Shown here: positions 2,616 through 60,599 of the stretch, one piece after another
Layout: each line of letters starts with the position of its first letter
Numbering within the stretch: position 1 is the first letter of the stretch
DNA from: Pseudomonadota bacterium
GTDB lineage: Bacteria; Pseudomonadota; Alphaproteobacteria; Rhodobacterales; Rhodobacteraceae
DNA length: 64,000 nt
NCBI GenBank assembly: GCA_039026375.1
Contig: JBCCML010000005.1
Span: forward strand, 66,906-130,905
Direction: 5' to 3'
Notes under the pieces: generated by a model
What the model saw: only the letters and a program-made list of their open reading frames with translations
Databases searched by the model: none
Told to the model about the DNA's origin: nothing
Made by a program: the position numbers and the translations under genes

Positions 2616-2680
2616 CGCCACTTCTTTACGGGCACCTTAGGTCGCTTTTTGCGCAGGTGATAATGAGCCACGACAAGCCG

Positions 2681-29341: not shown

Positions 29342-29508
29342 GGTCGTCTACCTACGATTGGGCTACGTCGGGTGCCAGACGTTCCCCGTCCAAGTCGTGT
29401 AAAAACCAGGGTGGGGTACTGATGGTCAACCTTGCACGACGGAGTTTGTCCAGCCCTTAATAGCGGGGTGCGTCGCTGGGTCAGGGTTTGGACCAAGGTT
29501 GGGCAGGC

Positions 29509-31524
29509 TCAGGTCCCCCCTGGTGGTCCCAATTCCGCCAGGCGGACGATTTCGGGGGCATCGGCCAGATCCTGGACCTGGGCAGGCGCGCGGCGGCGCC
29601 AGTTCGGTTGTTCATCCACGGTTCCGGGAACATTTTGCTGGTCGGGGATCGCGAAGATGTCATCCAGGCCGATGGCGACCAGATCGGCGCTGCCCCGGCA
29701 GAGCAGGCGGTGGATCGCGTGGCAGAGGTGGCTGTCGGCGATGGGCGGCGGGTGATCGGGGTCGATGCCGCCCGGCAGCAGCAACTCGCCCGCCAGCATG
29801 TGGCAGAGCGTGACGCGGTCGCGGGCGCGTTCGTCGCGTTCGTGGGGGCCGACGGGGTGGCCCAGTTCATCGCGGGTGGCGATCTCGCGGCCCTCCCACC
29901 AGCCGGCGATGCTGGGCAGGTCGTGGGTGCCGAAGGCCGCCAGCGTCATTTGGCGGTATTCGTTGGGGTGGCGCAGGCGCACCCATTCCCGCTCGAACGG
30001 CAGGATGGCGCAACCGTAGAGGCCTGCATTGCCCAGCGCGTCGCGCAGGCCGTCGGGGACGGTGCCCAGATCCTCGCCGACGACCAGGCAGCCGGCGCGG
30101 GCGGCCTCGATCCGGGTCAGGGCCAGCGTCGCCTCCAGCGGGAAGGCGACATAGCCCCCAGCCACGCCCGACATCGGTGCCCAATAGCTGCGGGCGAAGC
30201 CGATGATGTGGTCGATGCGCACCATCCCCGCCGCCGCCATGGTCTGGCGCAGCATCCGTCGGAAGGGCGCGAAGTGCTGGCGCGCCAGGCCCAAGGGCGA
30301 GTAGGGGGCGAGGTCCCAGCGCTGGCCCTCGGTGTTCAGCAGATCGGGCGGTGCGCCCAAAGATGCCCCCGTGGCAAAGGCCCCGCGATTGGCCCAGGTC
30401 TCGGCCCCGCCCGGACGCACGCCAACGGCGACATCCAGATAAAGGCCCAGCGCCATGCCACCCGCCTGTGCCCGCGCTTGGGCATCGGCCAGCTGCGCCT
30501 CGGCCGTCCACTGGCACCATTCGTGAAAGGCGATCTCATCGGTAAACCGGGCAGCGAAGGCCTGCACTTCGGCGCCATCGGGGTCCTGCAGCCCGTCCGG
30601 CCACCGTCGCCAATCGGGCCCGTGCTGGGTCGACAATGCTTCGTAGACGGATTGCAGCGCCTGCACCCGGGGGCGCGCCGCCGCCCAGGCGGCAAAGGCC
30701 TGCTGCCGGGGGCCGTCGCCCTGCCGGAACCGCGCGAAGAGCGCGCGAAGACCGGCCAGATGTACCGGCCGCACGGCTGGGTAATCGACCAGTTCCGCGG
30801 CTCGCGCCTGATCCAGACGGTCCGCCGCCTCGGCCAGCAGGGCGTCCAGTTCCGGGCAATCGGCGGCCTCTGGGATCGTGTCCAGCGCGATGTGGCCTGT
30901 CTCCAGCGTGGTGCGGCTGGAGGGCGAGTAGGGGCTGTAGCCGCCCTCGGCCACGCCGCGGCCGTGCACGGGGTTGATGCCCAGAAAGGCGGCGCCCTTG
31001 GGCCCAAGTGCCGCCGCCGTGCGGGCCAGATCCTCAAAATCGCCGACCCCCAGATGGCGATCCGATCGCAAGCCGTAAAGGGCCGTTGTCACACCCCAGA
31101 CCGGCCGCTTGTCCGAGATATCCGCCTGCACCGGCGCGCGGGGCGGGGCGGCGATCACCAGCGTCGCGCCACGTTCGCTGCTCATCAGATGGACGCCCAT
31201 GGGCAGCGCCGGAATGTGCCAGGGGGCGTCCGGATTGGCGGCGATCTCCTCGCCCGTCTCCAGCACCATGCGCCAGGGCGCCAGATCGTGGTCCGACCCC
31301 TGATCGGCGGTTACCACCAACAGGCCCGGCAGGGCGCCCGCCTGGGTCTCCTCCTCGATCTGCTTCAGGCTGTTCGCGGCCTGACCCTCGTCGGCGCAGG
31401 GCAAGCCCATGGCTGTCAGCAGGGCCTGGGCGGTTTCTGGCGCGCAGGGGTGATAGCTGCCATCGATGCGGTGATAGCCTTCCAGGATGCCGACGCGGGC
31501 GGCCAGGGCATTCAGCGCGATCAT
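29509..31524 (-). CDS. malQ: 4-alpha-glucanotransferase (amylomaltase, GH77)
   Basis: LYGLRS..LGVGDFEDL, SPYSPSSR, LYLDVAVG, GAPPDLLN.EGQRW, RIDHIIG, GEDLGTVP, THDLP, QNVPGT....PNWRR. Confidence 0.96.
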   Translation of the reverse strand: MIALNALAARVGILEGYHRIDGSYHPCAPETAQALLTAMGLPCADEGQAANSLKQIEEETQAGALPGLLVVTADQGSDHDLAPWRMVLETGEEIAANPDAPWHIPALPMGVHLMSSERGATLVIAAPPRAPVQADISDKRPVWGVTTALYGLRSDRHLGVGDFEDLARTAAALGPKGAAFLGINPVHGRGVAEGGYSPYSPSSRTTLETGHIALDTIPEAADCPELDALLAEAADRLDQARAAELVDYPAVRPVHLAGLRALFARFRQGDGPRQQAFAAWAAARPRVQALQSVYEALSTQHGPDWRRWPDGLQDPDGAEVQAFAARFTDEIAFHEWCQWTAEAQLADAQARAQAGGMALGLYLDVAVGVRPGGAETWANRGAFATGASLGAPPDLLNTEGQRWDLAPYSPLGLARQHFAPFRRMLRQTMAAAGMVRIDHIIGFARSYWAPMSGVAGGYVAFPLEATLALTRIEAARAGCLVVGEDLGTVPDGLRDALGNAGLYGCAILPFEREWVRLRHPNEYRQMTLAAFGTHDLPSIAGWWEGREIATRDELGHPVGPHERDERARDRVTLCHMLAGELLLPGGIDPDHPPPIADSHLCHAIHRLLCRGSADLVAIGLDDIFAIPDQQNVPGTVDEQPNWRRRAPAQVQDLADAPEIVRLAELGPPGGT

Positions 31525-33602
31525 GGGCGATCCTCTGACGGGGTGGCGATGGTCGCCAATAGCACAAGCAGCGTGCCGGCGGCGACTTTACCCGTCGGGT
31601 TGGTGTCCTTCGGTGCGCCGTCGGCCACGCCCGTATCCAGCGCCACCTGCCAGTTCCGCCCTGCAGCAGCAGGCAGATCCAGCGGGTGCGCGGTCTTGCC
31701 CGGGTTCAACACCAGTAGCGCCCATGCCTCGGGTGCTGGGCGGCGCAACAACAGCGCAAAGCCCCGGCGGTGTGCCTGCGGCCAGGGCACCGGCCCACCG
31801 TCCAGCCCGAACCAGGCCACATCCAACGGGCCGCCGGGCGCCACCGGCGTGCCGTGCAGCCAACGGTCCTGGCGCAGGGCGGGCGTGTCCGCGCGCAGCG
31901 CCAGCACCCGGCGGCAGAAGGCCAGCAGGTCCTGATCGCCCGCGTGCCAGTCGATCCAGGTGGTTGGATTGTCCTGGCAATAGGCGTTGTTGTTGCCGCC
32001 CTGGCTGTGGCCGACCTCGTCGCCCGCCAGCAGCATGGGCGTCCCCTGGGCCAGCAGGGCGGTGGCCAGCAGGTTGCGCTGGCGGCGCGCCCGATTGGCC
32101 AGGATGTCGGTGTCGTCGGTCGCCCCTTCGACGCCCAGGTTGTCCGATAGGTTATGGGCGTGGCCGTCGCGGTTGCCCTCGCCATTCGCATCGTTATGGC
32201 GTTGGGCATAGGCGGTCAGGTCGTGCGTGGTGAAACCGTCATGGCAGGCGACATAGTTGATCGAGGCGAAGGGCCGCCGGCCGTCCCGGTCAAAGACACG
32301 CGCCGAGCCCAGCAACCCGTCCGCCAATTGGCCCGGCGCCTCCGGCTGACCCAGCCAGAAGGCGCGGGTGGCATCGCGGAAGCGGTCGTTCCATTCAGCG
32401 AAGGGGGGCGGGAACTGGCCCAGCCGGTAGCCGCCGGGGCCGATATCCCAAGGTTCCGCGATCATCTTTAGGCTGCGCAACACCGGGTCCTGTGCCACAG
32501 CGGCCAGAAAGGCCGAGCCGGGCTCGAACCCGCCGGGGCCGCGCGTCAGGGCGGGCGCCAGGTCAAAGCGAAAGCCGTCGATGCCGATCCGTTCGGCCCA
32601 CCAGCGCAGCGAATCCAGAACCAGGCGCAGAACGAACGGGTGGCCCAGGTCCAGCGTGTTACCGCAGCCCGTGTCGTTGACATAGGCATGCTGCGGCCCG
32701 GTCAGCTGGTAATAGGCGCGGTTGTCCAGCCCGCGAAAGCTCAGCGTAGGCCCGTTGATGTCGCTTTCGGCGGAGTGGTTGTAGACAACGTCCAGGATCA
32801 CCTCGATGCCTGCGGCGTGCAGCCGCCGCACCGTTTTGCGCAGGCCCGCCAGCCCGTTGGGGCCCAGATAGCGGGGTTCGGGCGCAAAGAAGCTGACCGT
32901 GTTGTAGCCCCAGTAATTGGTGAGGTTGCGGGCCTCCAGGTGGCGTTCGCTGGTGAAGGCGTGGAGCGGCAGCAGCTCCAGCGCCGTGATGCCCAGGCTT
33001 TGCAGGTGGGCGATCACGTCTGGGTGGCCCAGTGCCTCGACCGTGCCGCGGATACTGTCGGGCAGTCCTGGCCACTGTTGGGTCAGGCCGCGGACGTGCG
33101 CCTCGTAGAGGACGGTGTTTGGCCAGGGGGTTTGAGGGCGTTCTTCAGGGTTGATGGGCGGCGGATCGGCGATAGCCACGCATTTGGCCAAGGTGGGCGC
33201 GCTGTCGGTGGGGTCCGGTTTGCTGGGATCGGTTTGGAGGTGGCCGACTTGGGCGGGGTGCCATTTGACCGACGCGGACAGGGTGCGGGCATAGGGGTCC
33301 AGCAGCAACTTGGCCGGGTTGAAGCGGTGGCCGTCCGCAGGCGCAAACGGTCCGGCGGCGCGCAGGCCATAGCGTTGGCCGGCGGCGATGCCGGGGGCAA
33401 AGCCGTGGTGGATGGGGCCCGAGCGGCCGGGGAGCGGCAGGCGGGCGGTCTCGCGGTCCTGGTCGTCGAACAGGCAAAGCCAGATCTGCTCGGCCCGTTC
33501 CGAGAAGACGGCGATGTTGGCGCCGTCCGTGGTCAGGGTCAGGCCCAGGGGTTCTGGGGTGCCCGGGGCGATGTCGGCAGGGGCGATGCCGCTGGCGTTC
33601 AT
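31521..33602 (-). CDS. glgX: Glycogen debranching enzyme (GH13)
   Basis: NPAKLLLDPYA, YEAHVRG, NYWGYNT, LDVVYNH, DGFRFDLA, AEPWD, HDGFT, GNNNAYCQD; ATG overlaps the glgA stop. Confidence 0.97.
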   Translation of the reverse strand: MNASGIAPADIAPGTPEPLGLTLTTDGANIAVFSERAEQIWLCLFDDQDRETARLPLPGRSGPIHHGFAPGIAAGQRYGLRAAGPFAPADGHRFNPAKLLLDPYARTLSASVKWHPAQVGHLQTDPSKPDPTDSAPTLAKCVAIADPPPINPEERPQTPWPNTVLYEAHVRGLTQQWPGLPDSIRGTVEALGHPDVIAHLQSLGITALELLPLHAFTSERHLEARNLTNYWGYNTVSFFAPEPRYLGPNGLAGLRKTVRRLHAAGIEVILDVVYNHSAESDINGPTLSFRGLDNRAYYQLTGPQHAYVNDTGCGNTLDLGHPFVLRLVLDSLRWWAERIGIDGFRFDLAPALTRGPGGFEPGSAFLAAVAQDPVLRSLKMIAEPWDIGPGGYRLGQFPPPFAEWNDRFRDATRAFWLGQPEAPGQLADGLLGSARVFDRDGRRPFASINYVACHDGFTTHDLTAYAQRHNDANGEGNRDGHAHNLSDNLGVEGATDDTDILANRARRQRNLLATALLAQGTPMLLAGDEVGHSQGGNNNAYCQDNPTTWIDWHAGDQDLLAFCRRVLALRADTPALRQDRWLHGTPVAPGGPLDVAWFGLDGGPVPWPQAHRRGFALLLRRPAPEAWALLVLNPGKTAHPLDLPAAAGRNWQVALDTGVADGAPKDTNPTGKVAAGTLLVLLATIATPSEDRP

Positions 33603-35071
33603 TGCGCCGTCATCTCGGCGTACAGCGCCGCATATGCGGCTGCCGACTGCGCCCATCCCACCGGCTGGCGCATGGCGTTGGCGCGCATGGTCGCCCAGGT
33701 CTTGGGGTCGGCATAAGCCGAGATTGCCCGCTGCAGGGCGCGGGAGAGGGCCTGGGCCGAGCCGGGCTCGTGTACGAAACCTGTGGCTACGCCTGCTGCC
33801 ATCGCGGCCGCGTTGGCGTCGATCACCGTGTCGGCCAACCCGCCCGTGCGCGCGACCACTGGCAGCGTGCCATAGCGCAACCCATAAAGCTGGGTCAGCC
33901 CGCACGGCTCGAACCGCGAGGGGATGATGATCGCGTCCCCGCCTGCCTGCATCAGGTGGCTGAGCGGCTCGTCATAGCCGATCACCGTGCCGATCCGGTC
34001 GGGTTGGGCCAGTGCGGCCTGGCGAAAGCCCTCCGCCAACCCCGGATCGCCGCTGCCGAGGACGGCCAAACCCGCCCCGCCATTGACCAGCGTGGGCAGG
34101 GCCTCCAGCAGCAGATCCAGCCCCTTCTGCGCGGTGAGGCGGCTGATCACGATGAAGAGCGGCGCCTCATCCGCCAGGTCCAACCCGAAATGCCCCGCCA
34201 AGGCCGCGCGGTTGCGCGCCTTACCGTCAGGGTCCTTCGCCGAATAGGACGCTGCCAGGGCCGGATCGCGCGCTGGATCCCAGGCGTCGGTATCGACCCC
34301 GTTCAAGATCCCCACCAGATCGCCGCGGCGGTAGCCCAGCAGACCCTCCATCCCCATACCGAAGGCGGGTTCCATAAGCTCGACCGCATAGCTGGGCGAC
34401 ACCGTCGACAAGCGGTCGGCCATGGCCAGACCACCCTTCAGGAAGCTGAGCCGGCCGTAGTATTCCAGCCCTTCCAGGGTCATCAGCGTCTCGGGCAAGC
34501 CCAGGTCGCTGATAACACTGGCTGGAAAAACGCCCTGAAAGGCAATGTTGTGGATTGTCAGCAGCACCGGCGGCACCGTCCCAGTCCCAGTCCCAGTCCC
34601 AGTCCCAGTGCCAGTGCTCGTGTGCCGCGCCAGATAGGCCGGCACCAGCCCCGCCTGCCAGTCGTGGGCATGCACCAGATCGGGCGCCCACCCTGCCAAA
34701 CCCGAGACAGCCAAGGCGGCGGCCACCTCGCAGAATAAGCCGTATCGCAGGTGATTGTCTGGCCAGTCTGCCCCGTCCGGGCCAACATAAGGATTGCCGG
34801 GGCGGTCGAAATACTCCGGCGCATCCAGCAGGATCAGCGAATGGTCGTCGACTTCACCCGTGATCAGACGCGCCCGGCGCCCACCCGGCAGGTTGATCAC
34901 ATGGCGCTGGGCCTGTGCCAGGCGCCCGGAGATCCCTGGATACCCTGGCAACAGCACCCGCATCTGGACGCCATGGCGTGCCAGGGCGCCAGGCAGGGCA
35001 CCCACCACATCGGCCAGCCCGCCCGTCTTGATGAGCGGCGCGCATTCCGAGGCGACGGACAGAACCCGCAT
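33599..35071 (-). CDS. glgA: Glycogen synthase (GT5), with a (Thr-Gly)6 insertion
   Basis: KTGGLADV, HAHDWQAG, TIHNIAFQG, SRLTAQKG, PSRFEPCGLTQL, TGGLADTV. Confidence 0.97.
   Translation of the reverse strand: MRVLSVASECAPLIKTGGLADVVGALPGALARHGVQMRVLLPGYPGISGRLAQAQRHVINLPGGRRARLITGEVDDHSLILLDAPEYFDRPGNPYVGPDGADWPDNHLRYGLFCEVAAALAVSGLAGWAPDLVHAHDWQAGLVPAYLARHTSTGTGTGTGTGTGTVPPVLLTIHNIAFQGVFPASVISDLGLPETLMTLEGLEYYGRLSFLKGGLAMADRLSTVSPSYAVELMEPAFGMGMEGLLGYRRGDLVGILNGVDTDAWDPARDPALAASYSAKDPDGKARNRAALAGHFGLDLADEAPLFIVISRLTAQKGLDLLLEALPTLVNGGAGLAVLGSGDPGLAEGFRQAALAQPDRIGTVIGYDEPLSHLMQAGGDAIIIPSRFEPCGLTQLYGLRYGTLPVVARTGGLADTVIDANAAAMAAGVATGFVHEPGSAQALSRALQRAISAYADPKTWATMRANAMRQPVGWAQSAAAYAALYAEMTAQ
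34580..34615. repeat. In-frame hexanucleotide tandem repeat inside glgA
   Basis: (CCCAGT)x5 followed by GCCAGT on the + strand; encodes (Thr-Gly)6 in GlgA. Confidence 0.95.
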
Positions 35072-35077
35072 GCGTGC

Positions 35078-36346
35078 CTAGTCCTCCAGCGCGTCCAACA
35101 TCTGCTGGGTCACCAGCACGATGCCATTGTCCGAGCGGCGGAACCGCTTCGCATCTTCTTCGGGGTCCTCGCCAATCACCATGCCGCGGGGGATCGTGAC
35201 GCCCCGGTCCAGCACGACATTGCTGAGGTGGGCGTGCCTGTGGATGGTGCAGGCGGGCAGAGCCACGACCCGGTGCAGTTCCGAGTAGGAATTGCAATGC
35301 ACCCCGGTGAACAGCAGGCTTTGGTCGATCCGGCTGCCCGAGACGATGCACCCGCCCGAGATCAGGGAGGACACCGCCTGGCCGCGCCGGTCCTCTTCAT
35401 CGTGGATGAATTTGGCGGGCGGCGTCAGGGCCGCATAGGTCCAAATCGGCCAGTCGCTGGAATAGATGTCCAATTCCGGGCTGAAGTCGGTCAGGTCCAC
35501 ATTGGCGGCGTGAAAACTGTCGATGGTGCCGACATCGCGCCAATAGGGCTCTTTCTCGTCGCCGGTCATCACACAAGACTTGGACAGCGAGTGCGCCATC
35601 GCTTTCGCGCCCTTGACCAAGGCCGGAATGATGTCCTTGCCAAAGTCATGGCTGCTGTTCGGGTTCTGCGCATCGTCGCGCAACACCTCGATCAAGCGCT
35701 CGGTCTCGAAGACATAGATCCCCATCGAGGCCAATGACGTGTCCGGCTTGCCCGGCATGGCGGGGGGATCGGCGGGTTTCTCGACAAAGTCGATGATGCG
35801 TCCGTTGGCATCAACGTCCATGACGCCAAAGCCCGACGCCTCTTTGCGGGGGACCTCGACACAGCCGACGGTTACATCGGCGCTGGCTTCGACATGGTCG
35901 GCCAGCATCATCGAGTAATCCATTTTGTAGATGTGATCGCCCGCCAGCACCACGATGTAGCGCGGTGCATAGCCTTCGATGATGTCGATGTTCTGAAAGA
36001 CCGCGTCTGCGGTGCCTTGGTAGACGTCGTGCCCCTCAACCCGTTGTGACGCAGGCAGGATATCCAGCCCTTCATTCCGACCGGCGGCAAAGAAATTCCA
36101 GCCCAATTGCAGGTGGCGTATCAGGCTGTGCGCCTTGTACTGCGTAGCGACGCCAATGCGCCGGATGCCGGAATTCACCGCGTTGGACAGCGCAAAGTCG
36201 ATGATCCGGGACTTGCCGCCGAAATAAACGGCAGGCTTGGCGCGCTTGTCCGTCAGTTCGCGCAAGCGACTGCCGCGGCCACCGGCCAGCACAAAGGCCA
36301 TGGTTTGCCGAGCCAAGGTTGCCCGGTCAGCTCTGGGGGCGTTCAT
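35078..36346 (-). CDS. glgC: Glucose-1-phosphate adenylyltransferase
   Basis: [61 protein letters not shown]; the track's extension to 36628 is not supported. Confidence 0.98.
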
Positions 36347-36509
36347 CTTCCCTGTCTCGTCTTGTTGCTTTGTCAGAGTATATGTGTCGCACCTGGGGCA
36401 ATCTGCCAACTGCCAATCCGGTGGATGGGATTTGTTGGCGGACCTGCGCCTTGCATCTACGGCGATTGCCCTTGGTGGGCGGCGCCGATGATTGGGGCTG
36501 AAAGGGGGG

Positions 36510-37622
36510 ATGATGACCACAGAGCTTGCGCCGCTGCCGCTGCCAGACGGCATCACAGCCCAGTTTGTCGAAACCGATTCGGGTTTGACCCAGCACGTCC
36601 TGAGTGCCGGGGAGCCGGACCGTCCCATGCTGCTGTTGCTGCACGGCTTCCCCGAGCTTGCCTATTCCTGGCGGCGGGTGATGCGGCCCCTGGCCGAGCT
36701 GGGCTTCTGGGTCGTGGCGCCGGATCAGCGTGGCTACGGCCGCACCACTGGCTGGGTGGGGGGCTATGACGATGACCTCTCGGCGTTCTCGTTGCCCAAC
36801 TTCGTGCGCGACGCGGTGGCGCTGGTCCGTGCGCTTGGGCGCGAGCAGGTGCATGCGGTGATCGGGCATGATTATGGCTCGCCCGTGGCTGCTTGGGCGG
36901 CGCTGCTGCGGGGGGATGTCTTCCCGCGGGTTGCGTGCATGAGCGCGCCCTTCGGTGGGCCGCCCGCGATCGCACAGCGCGTCGATCCGGTGCACGAGGA
37001 CATGCTGGCACTGTCGCCGCCGCGCAAACACTATCAGTGGTATTATGCAACGCGCGCTGCTGCTCCGGACATGGAGACCGCGCCCGAGGGCATGGAGGCC
37101 TTCCTGCGCGCATACTTTCACATGAAGTCCGCGGATTGGGCGAACAACCAGCCCTACCGCCTGGACGGGTGGACGGCGGAGGAGCTGGCGAAGATGCCGC
37201 TCTACTACGTGATGGAGGCTGATCAGACGATGCCACAGGCGGTGCGTGGTGCTCTGCCTGACGACGCGGCGATCGGTGCCTGCCAGTGGATGACACAGGC
37301 CGATATGGACGTCTACGCGGCCGAGTACGGGCGCACCGGGTTTCAGGGCGCGCTGAACAGCTATCGCTGCGGGACGTCCCCCCGGTTCCGGCGCGATCTA
37401 TCGGTGTTCCACGGGCGGCGGATCGAGGTGCCCGCGCTGTTCATCGCCGGGCGCCAGGATTGGGGTTGGGCGCAGGTTCCCGGCGCGCTGGAGGCGATGG
37501 AGACGCGCGCCACCGCCGACTGGCATGGCACGCATTTGGTCGACGGTGCGGGGCACTGGGTGCAGCAGGAACAGCCGGACGCAGTGGTGGAGATCCTGCG
37601 ACACTTCCTATCGATGGGCTGA
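36510..37622 (+). CDS. Alpha/beta hydrolase, epoxide hydrolase-like
   Basis: [28 protein letters not shown] (Asp nucleophile), [15 protein letters not shown]. Confidence 0.9.
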
Positions 37623-37630
37623 CGCCGCGG

Positions 37631-39385
37631 CTAGAGGCTGATGAAAATCGCCGCCGCCCCCGCGGTCACGGCCAACGCCCTGACCACCGCGCGGCCAGGG
37701 GCGATCACGCCGTAGGAGATTAGGGCCAACCCCGCCCCAACCTTGAATGCGCTCAGCACCGCAAGCCCTGGCTGTTCTGCCAATCCGATCAGGTCCGGAT
37801 TAGCGATCATACCCAGCGGGATCAGGTACAGCCCGATCCCCAGCGCCATGGCGCTGAAGGCGACCTTCCACCAATTCTCGTCGATCATGCCGGCGGCGAT
37901 GAAAACGGCCCCGCAGACCGGCGGGGTGATCGTCGACAACAGCGCGTACCAGAAGACGAACAGATGCGCCTGCAGCGGCGCCAGCCCCAGTTGGATTAGC
38001 GCGGGCCCCGCGACGGAAACACAGATGACGTAGGCCGCGGTCGTGGGCACCTCCATCCCCAGGATCAGACAGGCCACAGCGGTCAGCAGCAACGCGCCCC
38101 ACAGCACATCGCCCGAGCCCGACAGGATCAGCGACGTGATCTTGACCCCCAACCCGGTAATCCCCAGGACGCCGATCACGAGCGAGGCGCACAGGATGAT
38201 CGCCGCGATCATTGACACCTGTTTGCCCGCGTTCAGGCAGGCGCTCTCCAACCGTGCCAGCGTGCGTGCGCCGTCGACCGACAGCCTTGCGTCGATCCCC
38301 AACAGCACCGTGCCCACCAGTATCGCCCCGCAGGCGGCGTATTGCGGGGTCAGCCCGGCGAAAAACATGCCCCACATCAGGACCGCGAAAGGCACCAGAA
38401 AGAAGCACGCGGTAATCGCGACGTCGCGGCGACTGGGCTGGTCCTCGGCCGCGATGCCGCGCAGCGTGTAGCGCCGCGCATAGGCATCGATGCCGATCCA
38501 AACCGCCAGGAAGTATAACAAGGCGGGCAGCAGCGCCGCTGCCATGACGCCCGTGTAAGGCACGCCCGTCAGCTCCACCATCACGAAGGCGCCTGCCCCC
38601 ATCAGCGGCGGCATGATCTGGCCGCCGGAGGACGCGACCGCTTCCACCGCCCCGGCGAGGCGCTTCGGATAGCCCAGCTTCTGCATGGCGGGCAAGGTGA
38701 TCGCGCCGGTCGACGCAACGTTGGCCGAGGCGGAGCCCGAGATCGAGCCGAAGAGCGCGGACGACAACACCGACACCTTGGCGGCACCCCCTTTCAGCCG
38801 GCCTGCGGCAGCGGCGGCCACGTTCATGAACCCCTGGCCCGCTTCGCCTGCGTTCAGGACGGCGCCAAAGATGACAAAGATGGCGACTACACCCACCGAG
38901 ACTCCGGTCAGTTTGCCCCAAAGACCGCCCTCGGCGATCGTCAGCGTGCCTAGAAAGCTGGCCAACGGCGTGCCCGAATGGCCGAACTCGCCCGGGATGT
39001 GCTGGCCGAACAGACCGTAGGAAAGTGCCAGGGCTGCGATCACCGGCAGGGGCCAGCCGATGGCACGGCGCGCGGCCTCCAGCACCACCACAATCAGGGT
39101 GGCGGCAATGGCGATCTGCACAGGACCTTCCAGGAAGCCGTACTGATCGGACAGCGCATCGTGTTGCCAGGCAAGCCACAAGCAACAACCGATGCCGATG
39201 CAGGCAAGGACCAGCCCGGACCAAAGGCTCCAGCGGCCTCTCGCGGCGAACACCAGCACCCAGGGAAGGGCCAGCGCCATGTGCAGCGGCCGCGCGACCA
39301 GGTTAGGCACCAGGCCCGAGAAGATCAGGCCAAGGTGGAAGACAATGGTGGCGAGACCGAGCGTGGCCCAGATCCAGCGGCTCAT
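37631..39385 (-). CDS. TRAP transporter fused 4TM/12TM permease (TAXI type)
   Basis: VAIFVIFGAVL, SSALFGSISGS, AVEAVASSGGQIMPPLMGAGAF, LGMEVPTTAAY, ITPPVC. Confidence 0.92.
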   Translation of the reverse strand: MSRWIWATLGLATIVFHLGLIFSGLVPNLVARPLHMALALPWVLVFAARGRWSLWSGLVLACIGIGCCLWLAWQHDALSDQYGFLEGPVQIAIAATLIVVVLEAARRAIGWPLPVIAALALSYGLFGQHIPGEFGHSGTPLASFLGTLTIAEGGLWGKLTGVSVGVVAIFVIFGAVLNAGEAGQGFMNVAAAAAGRLKGGAAKVSVLSSALFGSISGSASANVASTGAITLPAMQKLGYPKRLAGAVEAVASSGGQIMPPLMGAGAFVMVELTGVPYTGVMAAALLPALLYFLAVWIGIDAYARRYTLRGIAAEDQPSRRDVAITACFFLVPFAVLMWGMFFAGLTPQYAACGAILVGTVLLGIDARLSVDGARTLARLESACLNAGKQVSMIAAIILCASLVIGVLGITGLGVKITSLILSGSGDVLWGALLLTAVACLILGMEVPTTAAYVICVSVAGPALIQLGLAPLQAHLFVFWYALLSTITPPVCGAVFIAAGMIDENWWKVAFSAMALGIGLYLIPLGMIANPDLIGLAEQPGLAVLSAFKVGAGLALISYGVIAPGRAVVRALAVTAGAAAIFISL

Positions 39386-39419
39386 GCCGTGGCGTTGCCC
39401 GGTCCCGGGTTTCGGGCGC

Positions 39420-40376
39420 TTACTGCTGCGCCTCGGTCAGCGCGAAGCCCACTTCCTGGTAGTAGCGGAGAGCGCCGGGATGGATCTTGCCGGTGATATT
39501 GGCCAGCAGGTCCTGGTCGACGCCATTCCACCAGGCAGCGCCGCTGCCCATGGCTGCCTTCTGCTCCCAGTAGGTTTTGGTCAGCTGATAGGCTGTGTCG
39601 TCATCCATTGCCGTCGTCGTGTAGGCGACCACCGGTAGCGACGTCGTGACGATCGGCGCATCTTGGCCGGCATAGGTGCCCGCAGGGATCACCAGGCGCG
39701 TGCGCTTGGTCTGGGTGATCTGGCCATCGCTAAGCGACAGAACCCGAACGCCGGTGGACGCTGCTGCCTCGATCACATTGGGGGCAGGGTAGGATCCAGC
39801 GGTAACAAATCCGTCGATCTGGCCGTTCTTCAGCGCTGGTACAGCGTTGGACAGTTCCACATCGGCCAGGTCCACTTTGCCTTCCAGCCCGAACAGGCCC
39901 AGGTACTTTGTGCCTTCGCGCGCGCCGAACGAACCCTTGCCCACCAGAATGCGCTTGCCTTTAAGGTCGGCGAAGGTTTCGATCCCGCTGTCGGCGCGGA
40001 CGACGAAGTGCATGGTCAGCGAGGGGATCGGGAACAGGGCGCGGATCTCGTCGAAGGCTGGGCTGCCCTTGCCCTCGAACATGGCCTTTTCGGATTGGGC
40101 CAGGCGCACCAGGACGGGCGGGGTGGTGAAGACATAGTCGCCGCCTCGGGCCCGAACCTCCATGACGTTCTGCACCGAGCCCTGGCTTTCTTCGACGGTG
40201 ACGATGATATCGCCGTCCGAGCCCGCCTTCATCGCTTCGGCGATTTGGACGGCCATCTGATAATAGGACGACGTGGATTTCGCGGACTTGTAGGTGATGC
40301 GCGTGTCGGCCTGGGCCGATGCGGCACCAAGAAGCAGTCCGGCCGCGGCAGCGGCGGCGATCAGGCGCTTGGTCAT
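39420..40376 (-). CDS. TAXI family TRAP solute-binding protein
   Basis: Signal peptide, SSYYQMAV.IAE, SQGSVQNV, DLKGKRILVG..GS, ALKNGQIDG, IHPGALRYYQE. Confidence 0.9.
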   Translation of the reverse strand: MTKRLIAAAAAAGLLLGAASAQADTRITYKSAKSTSSYYQMAVQIAEAMKAGSDGDIIVTVEESQGSVQNVMEVRARGGDYVFTTPPVLVRLAQSEKAMFEGKGSPAFDEIRALFPIPSLTMHFVVRADSGIETFADLKGKRILVGKGSFGAREGTKYLGLFGLEGKVDLADVELSNAVPALKNGQIDGFVTAGSYPAPNVIEAAASTGVRVLSLSDGQITQTKRTRLVIPAGTYAGQDAPIVTTSLPVVAYTTTAMDDDTAYQLTKTYWEQKAAMGSGAAWWNGVDQDLLANITGKIHPGALRYYQEVGFALTEAQQ

Positions 40377-40442
40377 GCAGGTTTCCTCCCCGGTCTGGCC
40401 CGGCCGTCATTGCGGTGGGCGGAGGAAGGTTATGCCAAGCAC

Positions 40443-40467
40443 CCGCCCGCAAGACAATCGCGGGCGG
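40443..40467 (-). terminator. GC-rich stem-loop downstream of flgD
   Basis: CCGCCCGC-N9-GCGGGCGG. Confidence 0.35.
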
Positions 40468-40499
40468 AAGGGGATCTAGGCATATTTGGGTGCGGCGGT

Positions 40500-41198
40500 T
40501 TATTCTGCGGTGTTCGCCAGCGTGGTCAGGCGGGTGACTTGCTCTGGGTTGGCGCGTCCGCCATCGGTGAGTTCCAGGAACAAGCCCTCCTCCGTGCCGC
40601 GAATGCCGCTGACGGTCCGGGGGATCTGCGCTGGGATTTCCTCCAGCACCGAGCCGCCTTCGACATAGGACAGCGAGATCGCCACTTCGGTCCCGGCGAC
40701 CTGCGCGCCAGCCTGGGAAAGCCCGTCCCATGTTGCGCGGCCATTGGCGTCGGGTTCGACCACGAACTGGCGCAGGGTGCGGCCGTCGCTTGCGCGCACG
40801 ATGGCTTCGATCCGATCGGCGTTGACGTTCGGAGGGACATCGAAGCTTTTCGGCGTCCCGTCGGCGAAGAAGGTTCCGTCGGACAGTACGACATCGCGGC
40901 CGATCCACGAGGCGAAGCTGGCGAGGTCGGCGCTGAAGCTTTGTTCAATGAAAGCGTCCAGGCGTTCGTTGGTGCCAACGACCTGTTCGACCGTCGAGAA
41001 GCTGGCGAGTTGCGCGATGAACTCGGTCGAATCGAGCGGAGACAGCGGATCCTGGTTGCGCAGCTGAGCCGTTAGCAGCGTCAGAAAGCTATCGAAGTCG
41101 GCAGCCGCAGCGCTGCGAGAATCGCCCGATAACGCAGAGCGGTCTGTGGCCGGCACAACGGGTCCGGGAAGCAGGGCGGCGAGTGTCTGATCGGTCAT
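40500..41198 (-). CDS. flgD: Flagellar hook capping protein
   Basis: DFDSFLTLLTAQLRNQDPLSPLDSTEFIAQLASFSTVEQ. Confidence 0.95.
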   Translation of the reverse strand: MTDQTLAALLPGPVVPATDRSALSGDSRSAAAADFDSFLTLLTAQLRNQDPLSPLDSTEFIAQLASFSTVEQVVGTNERLDAFIEQSFSADLASFASWIGRDVVLSDGTFFADGTPKSFDVPPNVNADRIEAIVRASDGRTLRQFVVEPDANGRATWDGLSQAGAQVAGTEVAISLSYVEGGSVLEEIPAQIPRTVSGIRGTEEGLFLELTDGGRANPEQVTRLTTLANTAE

Positions 41199-41207
41199 GA
41201 GAGTGTC

Positions 41208-42767
41208 CTACAGTCGAATGTCCATGCTGGCGCCGGGCGGCAGCATTGTGGGTGCGCGGCCAGGTGAGGCAGTCGGCGTCTCAGATGTGCGGTCGCCCAT
41301 TGCCAGGTCGGGCCCTGCCCGGTTGTCGCCATCGCCCTCCGCCTGTTGGTCTGAGAACGCACTCATACCCAGATCCACCTGGCCAAAACCTGCCTCGGCG
41401 AACTGTTGGCTGAGCAAATCCAGGTGCCGGCGCAACAGATCACCAGTCGCCTGACGCTCGGCCGAGATGGTGGCCCGTAGATGTTGCTCGTTCAGTTCGA
41501 TGGTGATCTCCAGGCGGCCTAGCTCTGGCGGATCCAGCAGCACTTCGACCACGCCGCCATTTGCACGTGTTCCGGCGGCGGCCACGATCTGTGGCGCGAT
41601 CTGCCGTTCCACCGTCGCTGCCTGCATCTCGATCGGCATGGTTGTCGGCAGCACCGGCGTAGGCTGGGTCGCCCGGGCCGTCGCCAAGGTTGAAGCCTGG
41701 TACCCGCCCTCCGCAGTGCTCTGCACGAAGGAAGTCGTCTTCCCGTCGCCTCGTTGAGCGGCGTTCTCGGCCAGCGCCGGTTTTGGGACGCCGACCTTCG
41801 GCAAAGAGATCTCGCCCTCCTCGGTCAGATTTGGTGAGCTTGCGCCAGTGAGTGGTGCCTCGCCAGCGTTGGCACGCACTGCCGCGGCGGTTGTAGATTT
41901 CTCGGTCCGGCGCTCTGGTGCCACCACGTCTTTTGATATCGGTGCCGCAACTGTCTTTGGCGCCCCATCGTCCACGGGCTGTAGCACCGTCTTTGGGGTG
42001 GCGCGGTCGCTGATCTCCGTGGCGCTTTGGGCGGTTTCAGGTGCCTGGGCTGCTTGAGCCGCTGGACGAACCACCGGCGCCGCTGGCTGAGCGGGCACCT
42101 TCGGCTGCGGCGCAGTAGGCGCCTCTTCGGCAGGAAGGGCGACCTTGACCTGTGGTGCCGGCGCCGGCGGCTCCTCGACCACGGGGCCAGTTTGTGATGC
42201 GCGAATCGTGCCTGTCGTCAGGGCCTCGGTCCTTGTGGCACGCGGCTTCTCGACCACCTTGACCTCTGCCTCTCCGTCGTCTGTCGGCAACGGTTCGGCA
42301 TCGACCGGCATGGCAGCTTTTGGGCGCGTCTCATCCGGCGTAGCAGCAACCTGGCGTCCAACCCTGACAGCGTCTTCGGTGACCTGAGTGGATGGACGCA
42401 CGACCTGATCAGCAGCCGGGCGCACGGGCACATCAGCGCTTGCTTCGATTGCAGCCGTCGTTAGGCGACTGTCATCGGTGTCGCGCGCATCGTTTGATGC
42501 ATCGCTGTCCGCATCTTGCGCCGTCGACGCGCCGTTGCGCGAATCTTCCGCATTGCTTTCTGGCGCTTCACCTTCAACATCGCTCGCGGGCTCGGTGCGC
42601 GTATCATTGCGCTCCACCTCGGCCGGTTGTGCGCCGCGGTCCTGACGTTCGGACGTGAAGGCTTCAGAGAAACGTCCATCGTCGACATCGCCGCCTTGTG
42701 GGGGGCGCCGTCCGCTATCTTGGTTGAGCCCCAGCGGTCGCTGGGTCAGCATTTCTGGCAAATCCAT
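41208..42767 (-). CDS. fliK: Flagellar hook-length control protein
   Basis: Long Ala/Pro/Thr-rich low-complexity region, then VEVLLDPPELGRLEI...AER..T.DLLRRH...L...F..AG. Confidence 0.88.
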   Translation of the reverse strand: MDLPEMLTQRPLGLNQDSGRRPPQGGDVDDGRFSEAFTSERQDRGAQPAEVERNDTRTEPASDVEGEAPESNAEDSRNGASTAQDADSDASNDARDTDDSRLTTAAIEASADVPVRPAADQVVRPSTQVTEDAVRVGRQVAATPDETRPKAAMPVDAEPLPTDDGEAEVKVVEKPRATRTEALTTGTIRASQTGPVVEEPPAPAPQVKVALPAEEAPTAPQPKVPAQPAAPVVRPAAQAAQAPETAQSATEISDRATPKTVLQPVDDGAPKTVAAPISKDVVAPERRTEKSTTAAAVRANAGEAPLTGASSPNLTEEGEISLPKVGVPKPALAENAAQRGDGKTTSFVQSTAEGGYQASTLATARATQPTPVLPTTMPIEMQAATVERQIAPQIVAAAGTRANGGVVEVLLDPPELGRLEITIELNEQHLRATISAERQATGDLLRRHLDLLSQQFAEAGFGQVDLGMSAFSDQQAEGDGDNRAGPDLAMGDRTSETPTASPGRAPTMLPPGASMDIRL

Positions 42768-56711: not shown

Positions 56712-56946
56712 CTTAAGGTTCCGCAGTGGGCGTAACGAAGCGGGAAACTAGGCGAGACAGGTGCGGCTGTGAAGGGCGTTGCACGTCGATGTGTAGCTGC
56801 GCACGCCTGACGGTTCGTTTCGGAAGATCCACACGATTGGCAGGGGCTCACACGCGGAAGCTGTTACACGCGATGCCACAGGTGCCAAAGGTTGCGCCAC
56901 TTGCGACATCGCCGTACCCTTGCGCACGGGAACAGGGGGAAATCCG

Positions 56947-57993
56947 ATGTCTCGTTTCGTGCCGGGAAGATATGCCCTGCTGGTTGTAGCGGCGCTGCTA
57001 CAGGGGTGCTCGCCTGCGGTTTTCAAGAAGCAAACAGCTGAGTTCGCCGGCGCTGCCGAAACGGTAGAGCAGACTTGGATCGCGCTGCATGATGAATACG
57101 ACGCGCTGAAACAGGCTGAGCGAGACCGTGACCGCATAAGGCAAGAATGGGTATTCGACGTTTCGCCTGCATGCGGGCAGTTCGCCGGCATGCTGGCACC
57201 TGCGCTGGGGGCAGATCTCAGTGCGGAAGACCGGAAGGCAGCCATTGAACGCCGAGAAGCTGTCGTAAAGGCATGCGCGTTGGTTCGTTTGCAGGCCGAT
57301 CAACCGGCACCCGGTGTCATTGTTGACCCAGTTGACAGGCGCTTGTTGCCATACGCGAAGGCCATCACCGCCTATGCTGATGGCTTAGCATTGTTAACTG
57401 CGGCCGCAGACGAGGCGTCTTTTCGTGGGGCGGCGGCAGAATTGGGGGCGTCTCTTGGGAAGGCTGGCAGCTCGTTGGCGCAGCTTGGAGATGTGGACAT
57501 CGACGTCTCCGGCCCAATCTCAGCGTTAGCATCAGTGTATGCCGAGATCACGCTGGCAACGTTTGAACACCGCAAATACACGGCCCTTCGGGACGTGGTT
57601 CGCGGCAGTGAAGGCGCCATTGATCGCTTAACTACGCGGTTGGCCGGGCTAGAGACCCGCCTGCGCCAGCGCTTGCTGCAGGCCCAGTTCAAGGCCCTTC
57701 GTGCTGCCGCTGCCGATCTAGAAAACCTGCCGAACGGTGCACAGCGGGCAGAGCGCATTAAGCGGCAGCAGGCTGTAATAGATCGGCTTGCCGAGTATCA
57801 GGCTTACGCAAATACCCTGACGCAGGGTGGGGCAAGCTATCGCGACGTGGGCGCCGCGCATGCGGCGCTATTGGAAGCCGTGAACAACCCAGACAGTTTT
57901 GAGTTGGCGAAGGCCGCAGCTGAGCGGATCAAAGCCGTTGGTGATGCGGCGAAGGACGCAGCGGATGCTTTGAAGCTGGACCTTCCTTTCTAA
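56947..57993 (+). CDS. Hypothetical all-helical lipoprotein
   Basis: RBS AGGGGGA; signal peptide with lipobox LQGC; Ala-rich helical body; no family recognised. Confidence 0.75.
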   Translation: MSRFVPGRYALLVVAALLQGCSPAVFKKQTAEFAGAAETVEQTWIALHDEYDALKQAERDRDRIRQEWVFDVSPACGQFAGMLAPALGADLSAEDRKAAIERREAVVKACALVRLQADQPAPGVIVDPVDRRLLPYAKAITAYADGLALLTAAADEASFRGAAAELGASLGKAGSSLAQLGDVDIDVSGPISALASVYAEITLATFEHRKYTALRDVVRGSEGAIDRLTTRLAGLETRLRQRLLQAQFKALRAAAADLENLPNGAQRAERIKRQQAVIDRLAEYQAYANTLTQGGASYRDVGAAHAALLEAVNNPDSFELAKAAAERIKAVGDAAKDAADALKLDLPF

Positions 57994-58015
57994 GCGATTT
58001 CATAAGGATAGCGGT

Positions 58016-58384
58016 ATGACCACCAAGAAACTGGAGAACGATCGCGACAGTCTGTTGGACGGTCTTTTTCGGGCTCAACACGCCCTGCTGGTCGCCTTGC
58101 AGGGCCAAACAGACCCCGGCAAACGTGCCGAGATTAACGCCGAACTCGACCGGGTTATGGGTTTGATCGACGAAATCATTGATGCCGACATCAAGCAGCT
58201 GACGGATGACTTCATTGCCGACCCTCAAGTTCAGGCGGACGTAAAACAGATCCGAGACGCCACCAAGGAAGTTAAGAAGGTCGCCGCCGAGCTGGAGGCC
58301 AAGAAGAAGGACCTGGAGAAGATCAAGAAGGCGATCGACAAGATCATCAAGCCCTTAGAAAAACTCGCAAAGTTTGTTGCCTGA
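58016..58384 (+). CDS. Hypothetical helical/coiled-coil protein, 122 aa
   Basis: RBS AAGGA; 22 nt after the lipoprotein stop; heptad pattern and Lys-rich amphipathic C-terminus. Confidence 0.75.
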   Translation: MTTKKLENDRDSLLDGLFRAQHALLVALQGQTDPGKRAEINAELDRVMGLIDEIIDADIKQLTDDFIADPQVQADVKQIRDATKEVKKVAAELEAKKKDLEKIKKAIDKIIKPLEKLAKFVA

Positions 58385-58399: not shown

Positions 58400-59266
58400 T
58401 TACGCGATGCTCTGATTGATGGCATCTGCGATCAGCGCATCGAATTCTGTCGGCGTTGACACCTTTGCTACATCGGCTGCCGAAACGGTGACGCCCCAGT
58501 TCTCGGCTATTGCATCGTACCGCGGCAGCCGCCGCGTCAGAAGTTGCCGGAAACCCCACCGAATGAAGTCGTCCGGGTCGACCCGATGATCCGGCACCCC
58601 ATGTGCGTTGCGATAACCCATCCAGGACGCCTTCAGAAACTCCTCAGGGTAATACATGGGCTTTGGTGCACGATCGAACCGTGCAGCCAACTCGTCCGCA
58701 TCCGCTTCCGTGCCGCGGATCTGGACCAACAGGACATGGCGCGTCAACTCGGTCAACACAGGGTCTTTTTCGTCGTCGGCCTCCACGACCTCGCACAAAG
58801 ATCCAGACGTGTCGCACAGAAAATGCGGGTACCCGTAAAGATCTTTGGCGCGCGCAACGAACGGGATGGCGTCCAGGGTCGCGGCAATCTCGGCGCTGCG
58901 ATGCTGGCGTTGACGCTCCAGGTAGGCGTCAAAGGGGATACCGCCTTTATCGGGGTCGCCCGGCTTGCCCAGATAGGTCGACAGCGGCGCGAGATTTTCG
59001 AATGTCAGGTTTGACGTGATGTAGACAGAGTCTGACATTAGCAGCTCTCGCAGGAAAGGCACCTGCATCGCCGCGCGCTTGAAGTTATCGGCAATGTGCT
59101 CGCCCATGTACCGCGTGCCGATACGGTAATCGACGGAGTAGTGGAACCACTCGCCCCCCTCACGCAGCATCGACGCAATGCGGGTTTTTCCCGTTCCAGA
59201 CATGCCGAAAAGCGCCACGGCCTTGCGGGGCGCTTTCAGATACGCATCAGCAGTCTGGTAGATCAT
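58400..59266 (-). CDS. Uncharacterised P-loop ATPase
   Basis: FGMSGTGKT, WFHYSVDYRIGTRYMGE, LGKPG...KGG, CDTSGSLCEV, PKPMYY. Confidence 0.85.
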   Translation of the reverse strand: MIYQTADAYLKAPRKAVALFGMSGTGKTRIASMLREGGEWFHYSVDYRIGTRYMGEHIADNFKRAAMQVPFLRELLMSDSVYITSNLTFENLAPLSTYLGKPGDPDKGGIPFDAYLERQRQHRSAEIAATLDAIPFVARAKDLYGYPHFLCDTSGSLCEVVEADDEKDPVLTELTRHVLLVQIRGTEADADELAARFDRAPKPMYYPEEFLKASWMGYRNAHGVPDHRVDPDDFIRWGFRQLLTRRLPRYDAIAENWGVTVSAADVAKVSTPTEFDALIADAINQSIA

Positions 59267-59362
59267 GGGAATCCCTCGAAGTTGCCTCCGCTTACGCACG
59301 AATGCCGGATTTGCCAAGCGCTGCCTTCCTGTGAGATGCTGCCGGCAAAAGGGAGATCGCCA

Positions 59363-59599
59363 ATGTCAGACGCAGAGAAGCACACGCCCGACACGCTGGC
59401 GGATGCCGAGATGGATGACGTGCAGGGTGGTGTCGGCGCAAACCGGACCGTGACGATCGGTGCGAACCAGACCGAGACGACACGGGTGTCTGCGACCGCG
59501 CCGCCGGCCGATCCCATTCCGGTGCCGTATCCCAACATCGACAGCAAGCCGTCGCAGGGTGTGACGACATCGCGGTTCAAACTCACGCGGGGCCGGTGA
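59363..59599 (+). CDS. 78-aa peptide with a double-glycine leader (RiPP/bacteriocin-precursor-like)
   Basis: RBS GGGAG 7 nt before ATG; leader MSDAEKHTPDTLADAEMDDVQGG; the track gives this only as the tail of a longer ORF. Confidence 0.75.
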   Translation: MSDAEKHTPDTLADAEMDDVQGGVGANRTVTIGANQTETTRVSATAPPADPIPVPYPNIDSKPSQGVTTSRFKLTRGR

Positions 59600-59624
59600 G
59601 AATGCCGGCTCGGAGGATGCATGT

Positions 59625-60599
59625 ATGACCACGGTCAAGACATCGTCGAAGCACATCGTGACCCCGGCAGAGGTCCGCCCCCTGGCGCAGCGGTCTGACT
59701 GGATGGGCGCCGCCTTGGTCGCGCATGCCTGGGGTGTGATCTTCGGCGCGGTGGCATTGTTCGCTTGGTGGCCGTCTTTGGTCACCGGGTTATTGGCCGT
59801 GATGGTCATCGGCTCGCGCCAACTGGGGTTGGCCGTTCTGATGCACGAGGCCGCGCACAAGGCGCTGTTCCGCACCGGTTGGATCAACGAGGTCGTCGGA
59901 CAATGGCTATGCGCGCGCCCGGTTCTGGCGGAGATGACGTCCTATCGCGCGTACCACATGGTCCACCACATCCACACGCAAACGGACAAGGATCCGGATC
60001 TTGCGCTGTCTGCAAAGTTCCCGACCACCCGTGACAGCCTGAAACGCAAGTTCACCCGGGACTTGACGGGCCAAACCGGCTGGAAGCTGCGCTTGGCTCA
60101 GTTCCGTCGTGCGCTGCAACTCGGCTTTGATGAAGATGCGATCTCTGGTGCGAAGATGGCTCAGACGTTTCAGTCCGAGGATTTGAAACCCGGCATTCTT
60201 TGCAACATCCTTGTGTTCGCAATCATGTGGGCAATCGGTGACTGGTGGTACTGGTTTGCCTTTTGGGCCTTGCCACTGCTGACCTGGTATCAGTTCGTCA
60301 TCCGCATCCGAAACATCGCCGAGCATGCCGTGCTGACGGCGCCGCAGGAACCACTGGGCAATGCGCGCACGACCTATGCCGACCCGATCACGGCGTTCTT
60401 TCTGGCGCCGTACTGGGTGAACTATCACTTGGAGCATCACCTGGTGATGCATGTGCCCTGCTGGCGCCTGTCTAAGGTGCACCGTCTGTTGCAGGAAAAG
60501 GGGTACGCCGAGCGGATGGAGACAGCACCCAGTTATTGGCGGGTTCTCAGCATGGTGGGTTGGCAGCAGCTAAGCCCAGAGCGTGCCGGTGCCGGGTGA
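59625..60599 (+). CDS. Membrane-bound fatty acid desaturase family protein
   Basis: Three His boxes HEAAH, HMVHH, HLEHH; RNIAEH; TM segments. Confidence 0.9.
   Translation: MTTVKTSSKHIVTPAEVRPLAQRSDWMGAALVAHAWGVIFGAVALFAWWPSLVTGLLAVMVIGSRQLGLAVLMHEAAHKALFRTGWINEVVGQWLCARPVLAEMTSYRAYHMVHHIHTQTDKDPDLALSAKFPTTRDSLKRKFTRDLTGQTGWKLRLAQFRRALQLGFDEDAISGAKMAQTFQSEDLKPGILCNILVFAIMWAIGDWWYWFAFWALPLLTWYQFVIRIRNIAEHAVLTAPQEPLGNARTTYADPITAFFLAPYWVNYHLEHHLVMHVPCWRLSKVHRLLQEKGYAERMETAPSYWRVLSMVGWQQLSPERAGAG

Follow-up and report, generated by a model that had tools for sequence, protein, structure and literature searches.

Peptides that carry a double-glycine leader are commonly interpreted as bacteriocins or as signals whose cores are arbitrary. 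For the precursors of the NHLP and Nif11 families, an exporter type encoded by three genes has been described (Haft et al. 2010, PMC2887384). The present analysis concerns P0001, a gene for a small precursor peptide in a marine Paracoccaceae genome (assembly GCA_039026375.1), which lies in a window of 64,000 nucleotides (contig JBCCML010000005.1, positions 66,906 to 130,905, forward strand) to which coordinates refer unless another contig, given as a C number, is named. As judged from profile matches, the P0001 core was shown to consist of two octapeptide repeats of the gp5/VgrG type and a stretch equivalent to the initial ~30-45 residues of the DUF4150 domain (Pfam Tox-PAAR-like). P0001 belongs to a peptide family in which several cores are recognizable pieces of the cell-puncturing machines of bacteria and phages. 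No published description of export-leader peptides with injection-machine fragments was found in full-text literature searches.

Leader and core of P0001

The P0001 translation consists of the leader MSDAEKHTPDTLADAEMDDVQGG and the core VGANRTVTIGANQTETTRVSATAPPADPIPVPYPNIDSKPSQGVTTSRFKLTRGR. When 5.8 billion protein clusters were searched with a word index, a sole homolog was returned, a 78-aa protein with 86% identity from a Pseudomonadota metagenome-assembled genome (MAG). This ortholog, P0002, is syntenic, and no insertions or deletions (indels) separate the two open reading frames (ORFs). The only indel in 9 kb between the two genomes is a single nucleotide at 59341, 5' of the ATG, where it disrupts a longer upstream frame. 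P0001 and its ortholog differ by 14 synonymous and 11 non-synonymous changes, distributed 6/5/14 over the three codon positions, and the ratio of non-synonymous to synonymous divergence (dN/dS) of 0.25 is the minimum among the six frames. The Shine-Dalgarno sequence, the existence of an ortholog, the placement of the indel, and the dN/dS value establish P0001 as a genuine gene under purifying selection that is weaker than for most of its neighbors. A promoter and terminator scan around P0001 detected nothing.

Inspection of the leader reveals the pattern of double-glycine peptides, namely a terminal GG, an acidic residue close to -8, and hydrophobic side chains at -4, -7, and -12; in TLADAEMDDVQGG position -4 is V, position -7 is M (replaced by L in the ortholog), position -8 is E, and position -12 is L. 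The sequence also fits the consensus of the family leaders, MxDxxKPETLxDxDLDxAQGG, in which the GG and the L are nearly invariant in an alignment of 20 leaders. P0001 itself gave no match to NCBIfam, and the matches of the family leaders were faint and fell without exception on GG-leader bacteriocin or RiPP (a peptide made by the ribosome and modified after translation) families. Beyond these faint generic models, no curated leader family matched. The leaders, at 21-23 aa, do not belong to the NHLP/Nif11 type (TIGR03793, TIGR03798), only 1 of the 20 touching TIGR03798 (E 0.043). As far as can be judged in silico, P0001 has the testable features of a C39 substrate.

A preliminary description of the window had compared two segments of the core (59432-59545, residues 24-61) with gp5/VgrG repeats and with the DUF4150 motif. 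The observation was confirmed, as profile searches reproduced both resemblances. For the first segment, the match to Pfam Gp5_C (PF06715) reached 19.7 bits (E 8.9e-4) with the whole peptide and 20.4 bits (E 5.2e-4), which is exactly the gathering score, with the core alone, covering profile positions 7-22. The ortholog scored 19.0 bits (E 1.4e-3) against the same gathering score of 20.4. In a single-sequence AlphaFold2 model, which was mostly of low confidence, a beta-hairpin was predicted with moderate confidence at residues 27-33/36-41, in a block with a pLDDT of about 85, and it falls exactly on the two octapeptide repeats.

For the second segment, residues 42-69 aligned to positions 9-36 of the 108 in Tox-PAAR-like (PF13665), with E 6.7e-3 when the core was used as query and 0.063 when the entire peptide was; the scores of 13.8-17 bits against a cut-off of 31 are those of a fragment and not of a full domain. 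The ortholog matched this family as well (E 1.6e-3). A homologous peptide with the core FPDVLKTPPPPSPVPIPYPNV... was found in two sister species. It aligns with P0001 to the C-terminus, reaches 32.2 bits on PF13665 (gathering score 31) over positions 3-35 only, and in one of the two (genome G005) is named "PAAR-like domain-containing protein" by NCBI. When the profile of four PAAR-like peptides was aligned by hhalign with six genuine DUF4150 N-termini of the genus, a probability of 94.5% (E 7.7e-8) was obtained. In a by-eye alignment with full-length proteins of the genus, the basic tail of P0001 may correspond to the DUF4150 strand SRTVKITGK.

Neither family was matched by any of 10 shuffled cores. 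In the ortholog, 14 of 16 residues of the gp5-like segment and 19 of 20 of the PAAR-like segment are kept, compared with 4 of 7 in the linker; at residues 67-78, 10 of 12 are kept. In real spikes, gp5-type repeats and then a PAAR-like tip follow one another in this same order. P0001 is not itself a gp5/VgrG spike protein, as only two repeats are present in the 55-aa core and no match to Phage_base_V or Phage_GPD was obtained. Comparison of the core with the sequences of the PDB gave no meaningful match. A phmmer search of 1.8 billion representatives recovered no VgrG or DUF4150 protein; the matches beyond the ortholog were giant repeat proteins and translated repeats, which were rejected as spurious sums of many weak stretches.

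A peptide family with one leader and one predicted exporter

Relatives of P0001 were collected from weak matches in small ORFs of related genomes that share the N-terminus, and then with a leader profile. With the profile, 22 small ORFs were identified in the host genome; across the genus, 14 of 61 genomes carry such ORFs, about 140 in all. Behind the shared leader stand unrelated cores, whose median length is 47 aa. When 137 non-redundant cores were scanned against Pfam (E <= 0.1), six families were matched by at least two cores: T6SS_HCP (6 cores, best E 8.7e-6), Phage_T4_gp19 (2 cores, 6.5e-11), Phage_base_V, the oligonucleotide-binding (OB) fold of VgrG (2 cores, 2.1e-6), the pseudopilin family DUF1559 (2 cores, 7.9e-6), Tox-PAAR-like (2 cores, 1.7e-5), and Gp5_C (2 cores, 5.2e-4). 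The earlier suggestion that the P0001 core was assembled from gene fragments is in this way well supported, and paralogous cores carry borrowed pieces of their own.

The matches lie mostly at the ends of the parent domains, several above the gathering score: gp19 98-134 of 134, Hcp 95-129 of 129, base_V 38-75 of 75, DUF1559 1-20, and Tox-PAAR-like 3-36. Hcp 1-22 was matched as well, weakly and under the cut-off (E 0.18). Direct comparison showed that the cores tile the Hcp of the genus at residues 6-20, 44-59, 58-66, 98-118, and 122-141, with 50-78% identity, and others match the gp19 of the host genome itself. Since the fragments are not verbatim but 50-78% identical to the Hcp and gp19 of the genus, any capture would be old, or the pieces would have been tuned. 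The cores do not copy long ORFs of the host genome, except for a GroEL-like stretch in the peptides of two relatives. Modules recur in different settings: the N-terminal module LVxNLSVGV occurs with three alternative tails, and many cores end in a tail of the GMERVFDDE type. Gp5-like repeats, IGKSATQTIGANQTPTVGETDTIDV, are also present in a paralog on contig C48, which matched Gp5_C and Gp5_trimer_C weakly. Sequence comparison thus showed a family in which a conserved leader precedes modular, hypervariable cores that appear to have been built repeatedly from terminal pieces, and in which P0001 is the "spike" member among peptides otherwise drawing mostly on the tube.

Export of P0001 had been proposed in the preliminary description, and the proposal gained support from the leader and from the exporter. 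The host genome encodes one C39-peptidase ATP-binding cassette (ABC) transporter (PF03412, E 1.4e-35), in an operon of four proteins (contig C4, 92167-98903, minus strand) of the NHLP type, the three exporter genes of which span 92680-98903. No modifying enzyme was present among these four genes; the flanking ORFs were listed, not searched. The exporter was found in 13 of the 14 family genomes, the 14th giving a weaker match, and in 1 of the 47 others (Fisher p = 2.9e-11, a significance overstated by the relatedness of the genomes discussed below). It may be inferred that the precursor is cleaved after Gly23 and that the core is exported unmodified.

The presence of the family was not associated with that of Hcp, gp19, or DUF4150 among the 61 genomes (p = 0.15-0.76). 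Full-length DUF4150 genes occur in 7 of the 47 non-family genomes and in 0 of the 14 family genomes, which is not significant. In the host genome, neither a full-length Hcp gene nor a full DUF4150 gene was found; the lack of Hcp means that the host probably has no type VI secretion system (T6SS), and the lack of both makes foreign targets of the family peptides plausible. The host does carry a phage-tail-like cluster (C11:40758-44012, L003), with a 231-aa spike, a 130-aa PAAR-like protein, a gp25-like protein, and baseplate J, and a gp19-type tube gene (C32:38143-38556).

Several further observations concern the family. In the sister species, a "mini-Hcp" peptide, in which N-terminal and C-terminal strands of Hcp are joined, is encoded next to the PAAR-like peptide, 4 nt apart (L066/L078; G005:C22 and G049:C15), an adjacency that echoes the hcp...paar order of T6SS loci. 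The sequence AAGANPMDLKRGID, present in two cores (L035 in G043, L048 in G008), is close to a GroEL helix, so that the borrowed pieces are not all from injection machines; the 553-aa ORF on C15 that it matches was presumed to be GroEL without a family search. Other short modules that recur without an evident origin include (K)GMERVFDDE and MEVVNEDE (C-terminal tails), FLR[KT]RPGR(F), LLGDDLGV[IL], AGLRSDGELVQAK, and NIWVCDTME, and GYIGETEKN is a candidate for a sheath N-terminus-like module. His-rich repeats (DHNHMP, YPVEHGIGHGD, FPGEMHNPE) were also seen. Cores with these modules or repeats include L028, L036, L047, L052, L073, L104, L115, L119, and host C35:16897. For another recurrent module, LGNFEIQDLMSRFNQAETLASSVQKK..NAVIGKI, an origin from the type III secretion needle was considered; this was unsupported, with a Pfam E of 0.04 in one member only, and the profile of the LGNFEIQDLMSRFNQAETLASSVQKK module gave GcrA (E 0.6) as its best PDB match and no needle protein.

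In the host genome, 12 or more of the 22 family genes are preceded, at a distance of 66-105 nt, by an 18-bp palindrome, CTGTARC-N4-GYTACAG (for example at C64:5084, C35:17135, C24:29623, C16:30680, C47:447, C5:14084/14447, C3:137539, and C6:112324). The genome contains 6 exact and 13 one-mismatch sites, where ~0.1 would be expected by our own estimate. The palindrome probably serves as operator for a regulator common to these genes. Extra sites at C1:57220, C12:55396/55439, C19:10393/10426, and C39:42011 may mark family members that the profile did not find.

Proposed structural mimicry and the alternative explanations

The observations on P0001 are probably best explained, as a whole, by an exported chimera of spike fragments that acts by structural mimicry. 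The leader would be cut after Gly23, and the 55-aa core would be exported by the C39-peptidase ABC transporter together with the second ABC subunit and the HlyD adaptor. Either in the periplasm or outside the cell, the fragments, each about the size of a strand, would then pair with the complementary surfaces that their parent segments contact. The partners could be spikes or tubes of the type VI systems of rivals, tailocins, phage tails, or a sensor of such parts, and would be either blocked or reported. Mimicry is favored because residues of the parent-family consensus are kept under selection and because the sources are biased to tube, spike, and pilin subunits. The role of mimic or decoy that had been suggested earlier is accordingly a plausible hypothesis. 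A fuller version, in which the family is an exported peptide library, tiled from conserved termini of injection-machine subunits, that outside the cell or in the periplasm interferes with or senses the T6SS, tailocins, or phage tails of rivals, and in which P0001 imitates the VgrG-PAAR junction, can be advanced only tentatively.

Several points weigh against mimicry. Both Pfam matches of P0001 itself are at or under the family cut-offs, and about 85% of the family cores have no recognizable parent. The 14 family genomes are related and perhaps form one clade, so the co-occurrence statistic for the exporter is inflated. The constraint on P0001 is looser than that on its neighbors (dN/dS 0.25 against mostly 0.01-0.11; a 357-aa ORF, with 0.38 on just 19 differences, is the exception). 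P0001 lacks the palindrome found upstream of most of its paralogs, the best match having 5 mismatches, and may for this reason be under other regulation or represent a stray copy. The tubes and spikes of a T6SS are put together within the attacking cell, beyond the reach of an exported peptide, which leaves the target of mimicry unclear.

The main rival, which is considered unlikely, is that the resemblance is a historical relic: a mobile leader cassette would have been fused to pieces of decaying T6SS or injection-system genes, and the peptide would be a membrane-active class II bacteriocin or microcin, or inert. Such a history would suit the reuse of modules such as LVxNLSVGV and GMERVFDDE in different combinations, the GroEL-like fragment in some cores, and the large share of cores without a Pfam parent. 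It gains credibility from the proposal that a VgrG C-terminal extension may hide a membrane-depolarizing peptide (PMC13373197), which would allow such fragments to be toxic themselves. A relic would not be expected to keep the parent consensus well enough for several peptides to reach Pfam gathering scores, nor to conserve the borrowed segments and not the linker between orthologs. The sources are, moreover, overwhelmingly tube, spike, and pilin subunits and not random genes, and the fragments are not copies of resident genes.

That the motif matches are noise in a Thr/Gly/Pro-rich, low-complexity core is highly improbable, and chance resemblance has largely been refuted already. The whole-peptide scores are under the Pfam cut-offs (19.7 against 20.4 and 13.8 against 31), and the phmmer and PDB searches recovered no parent protein, as chance would predict. 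Against this stand the shuffled cores, the matches of the ortholog to both families, the score of the G005 homolog above the PF13665 cut-off, the hhalign result, and the strong enrichment of the whole family for the same machinery.

Similarly improbable is a role of P0001 as a small protein that stays inside the cell, where it would regulate or cap the host's own phage-tail-like injection system, its N-terminus not being an export leader. The host has candidate clients in the cluster on C11 and the gp19 gene on C32. The family tracks the C39 exporter, however, and not gp19, Hcp, or DUF4150, and the leader fits the C39 recognition pattern.

The least probable reading makes P0001 a RiPP precursor on which the neighboring membrane desaturase acts, since the close spacing on the same strand and the retention of the pair in the single orthologous genome are outweighed by the absence of the peptide upstream of the best 80 of 497 desaturase relatives, the variable spacer described below, the location of the other 21 host paralogs at other sites, and the association of the family with the exporter and not with the desaturase.

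Should the peptides be mimics, they would represent a new kind of system for countering or sensing type VI secretion, tailocins, or phage tails, and would offer a natural supply of short ligands for tube and spike interfaces. If the likeness is only historical, the family still shows new secreted peptides arising by the fusion of an export leader to gene fragments.

Genomic setting and comparison with known systems

The features of P0001, its flanking genes, and the exporter operon are collected in Table 1.

Table 1. Positions of the P0001 features and flanking genes in the window, and components of the exporter operon on contig C4
Feature	Position	Strand	Basis or remark
P-loop ATPase, 288 aa, divergent, family unassigned; outside the system	58400..59266	-	weak Pfam/NCBIfam P-loop matches
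Shine-Dalgarno sequence GGGAG	59351..59355	+	read from sequence; 7 nt 5' of ATG; kept in ortholog
P0001, 78-aa precursor peptide gene	59363..59599, stop codon included	+	translation, ortholog, dN/dS
Double-glycine leader MSDAEKHTPDTLADAEMDDVQGG, residues 1-23, predicted cut after Gly23	59363..59431	+	family leader consensus
Two gp5/VgrG-type octapeptide repeats VGANRTVT IGANQTET, residues 24-39	59432..59479	+	Pfam Gp5_C, AlphaFold2 hairpin
GANRTVT within first repeat	59435..59455	+	
GANQTET within second repeat	59459..59479	+	
Variable linker TRVSATA, residues 40-46	59480..59500	+	4/7 residues kept in ortholog
DUF4150/Tox-PAAR-like N-terminus-like fragment, residues 42-69	59486..59569	+	PF13665, hhalign
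Core of that fragment, PPADPIPVPYPNI	59501..59539	+	
Basic C-terminal tail SRFKLTRGR	59570..59596	+	by-eye alignment with DUF4150 strand
Fatty acid desaturase, not a partner	59625..60599	+	PF00487 E 4e-38
TIGR03794 HlyD-type adaptor	C4 operon	-	278 bits, cut-off 156
TIGR03796 peptidase/permease/ATPase	C4 operon	-	918 bits, cut-off 853
TIGR03797-like second ABC subunit	C4 operon	-	682 bits, slightly under cut-off
Cyclic-nucleotide-binding protein	C4 operon	-	

The P0001 genome and that of the ortholog share the gene order metA, two small ORFs, P-loop ATPase, peptide, desaturase, TPR protein, ZIP transporter, and pyrophosphatase. The desaturase starts 25 nt 3' of the P0001 stop codon, on the same strand, and its nearest named relatives are from uncultured Limibaculum. 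The peptide was present upstream of none of the best 80 of 497 desaturase relatives (Paracoccaceae and allies), and the synteny of ATPase and desaturase is kept in relatives that lack it. The spacer between the two genes (59267-59624; compared with loci L123-L134) measures 358 bp here and 75-105 bp in the nearest relatives; in other relatives it measures 1-1.3 kb and holds unrelated genes. The spacer is an insertion hot spot and P0001, by the same comparison, a lineage-specific insertion. A partnership of the desaturase with P0001 is very unlikely. The neighbors of P0001 are a P-loop ATPase of unassigned family and a desaturase whose pairing with the peptide is not conserved, so that, as in the four-gene exporter operon, no modifying enzyme or leader-recognition (RRE) protein of the kind that marks a RiPP precursor is encoded beside it; modification by an enzyme encoded elsewhere is conceivable.

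A different double-glycine peptide, ...SDTELDRINGG followed by AENAGYGYAGV..., is encoded just 3' of the desaturase ortholog of a relative, in convergent orientation (L122; MAG contig JBCDID010000012.1, ~2518-2805, minus strand). Elsewhere in the window, the G+C content is 0.64-0.71 at 28000-42000 and about 0.57-0.61 in the rest. The pair of 357-aa and 122-aa ORFs at 56920-58384 has a synonymous divergence (dS) between host and relative of 0.01-0.03, compared with 0.19-0.49 for neighboring genes, which suggests recent exchange or unusual constraint.

Comparison with DUF4150/Tox-PAAR-like tips, such as those of Agrobacterium Tde2 and Serratia Paar1 (PMC13373197), shows that P0001 shares the PxPxPYPN segment and the flanking N-terminal residues. 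It differs in covering only ~30-45 of the 108 positions, in the lack of a toxin domain, and in the lack of a vgrG or DUF2169 neighbor, in a genome without an Hcp gene. With the C-terminal beta-helix of gp5/VgrG, P0001 shares two VxGxxxTx octapeptide repeats and a predicted beta-hairpin; with only two repeats and without the OB-fold and trimerization context, it cannot form a triple helix by the known route.

The double-glycine peptides of peptidase-containing ABC transporters (class II bacteriocins, microcins, and GG pheromones) resemble the family in their short acidic GG leader with hydrophobic residues at -4, -7, and -12, in the presence of a C39 peptidase ABC transporter with an HlyD adaptor, and in their small, unlinked precursor genes. 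By contrast, no immunity gene is evident beside P0001, and the family cores are of neither the amphipathic nor the Cys-containing types and appear instead to be structural pieces of injection machines. The NHLP/Nif11 multi-precursor systems, including the prochlorosins (PMC2887384), share with the family the TIGR03794/03796/03797 exporter and a set of precursors, dispersed over the genome, in which a single conserved leader is combined with many hypervariable cores. They differ in that the family leader, at 21-23 aa, is unrelated to nitrile hydratase or Nif11, that the exporter operon of the family contains no modifying enzyme, and that its cores appear to be taken from Hcp, tube, and spike proteins.
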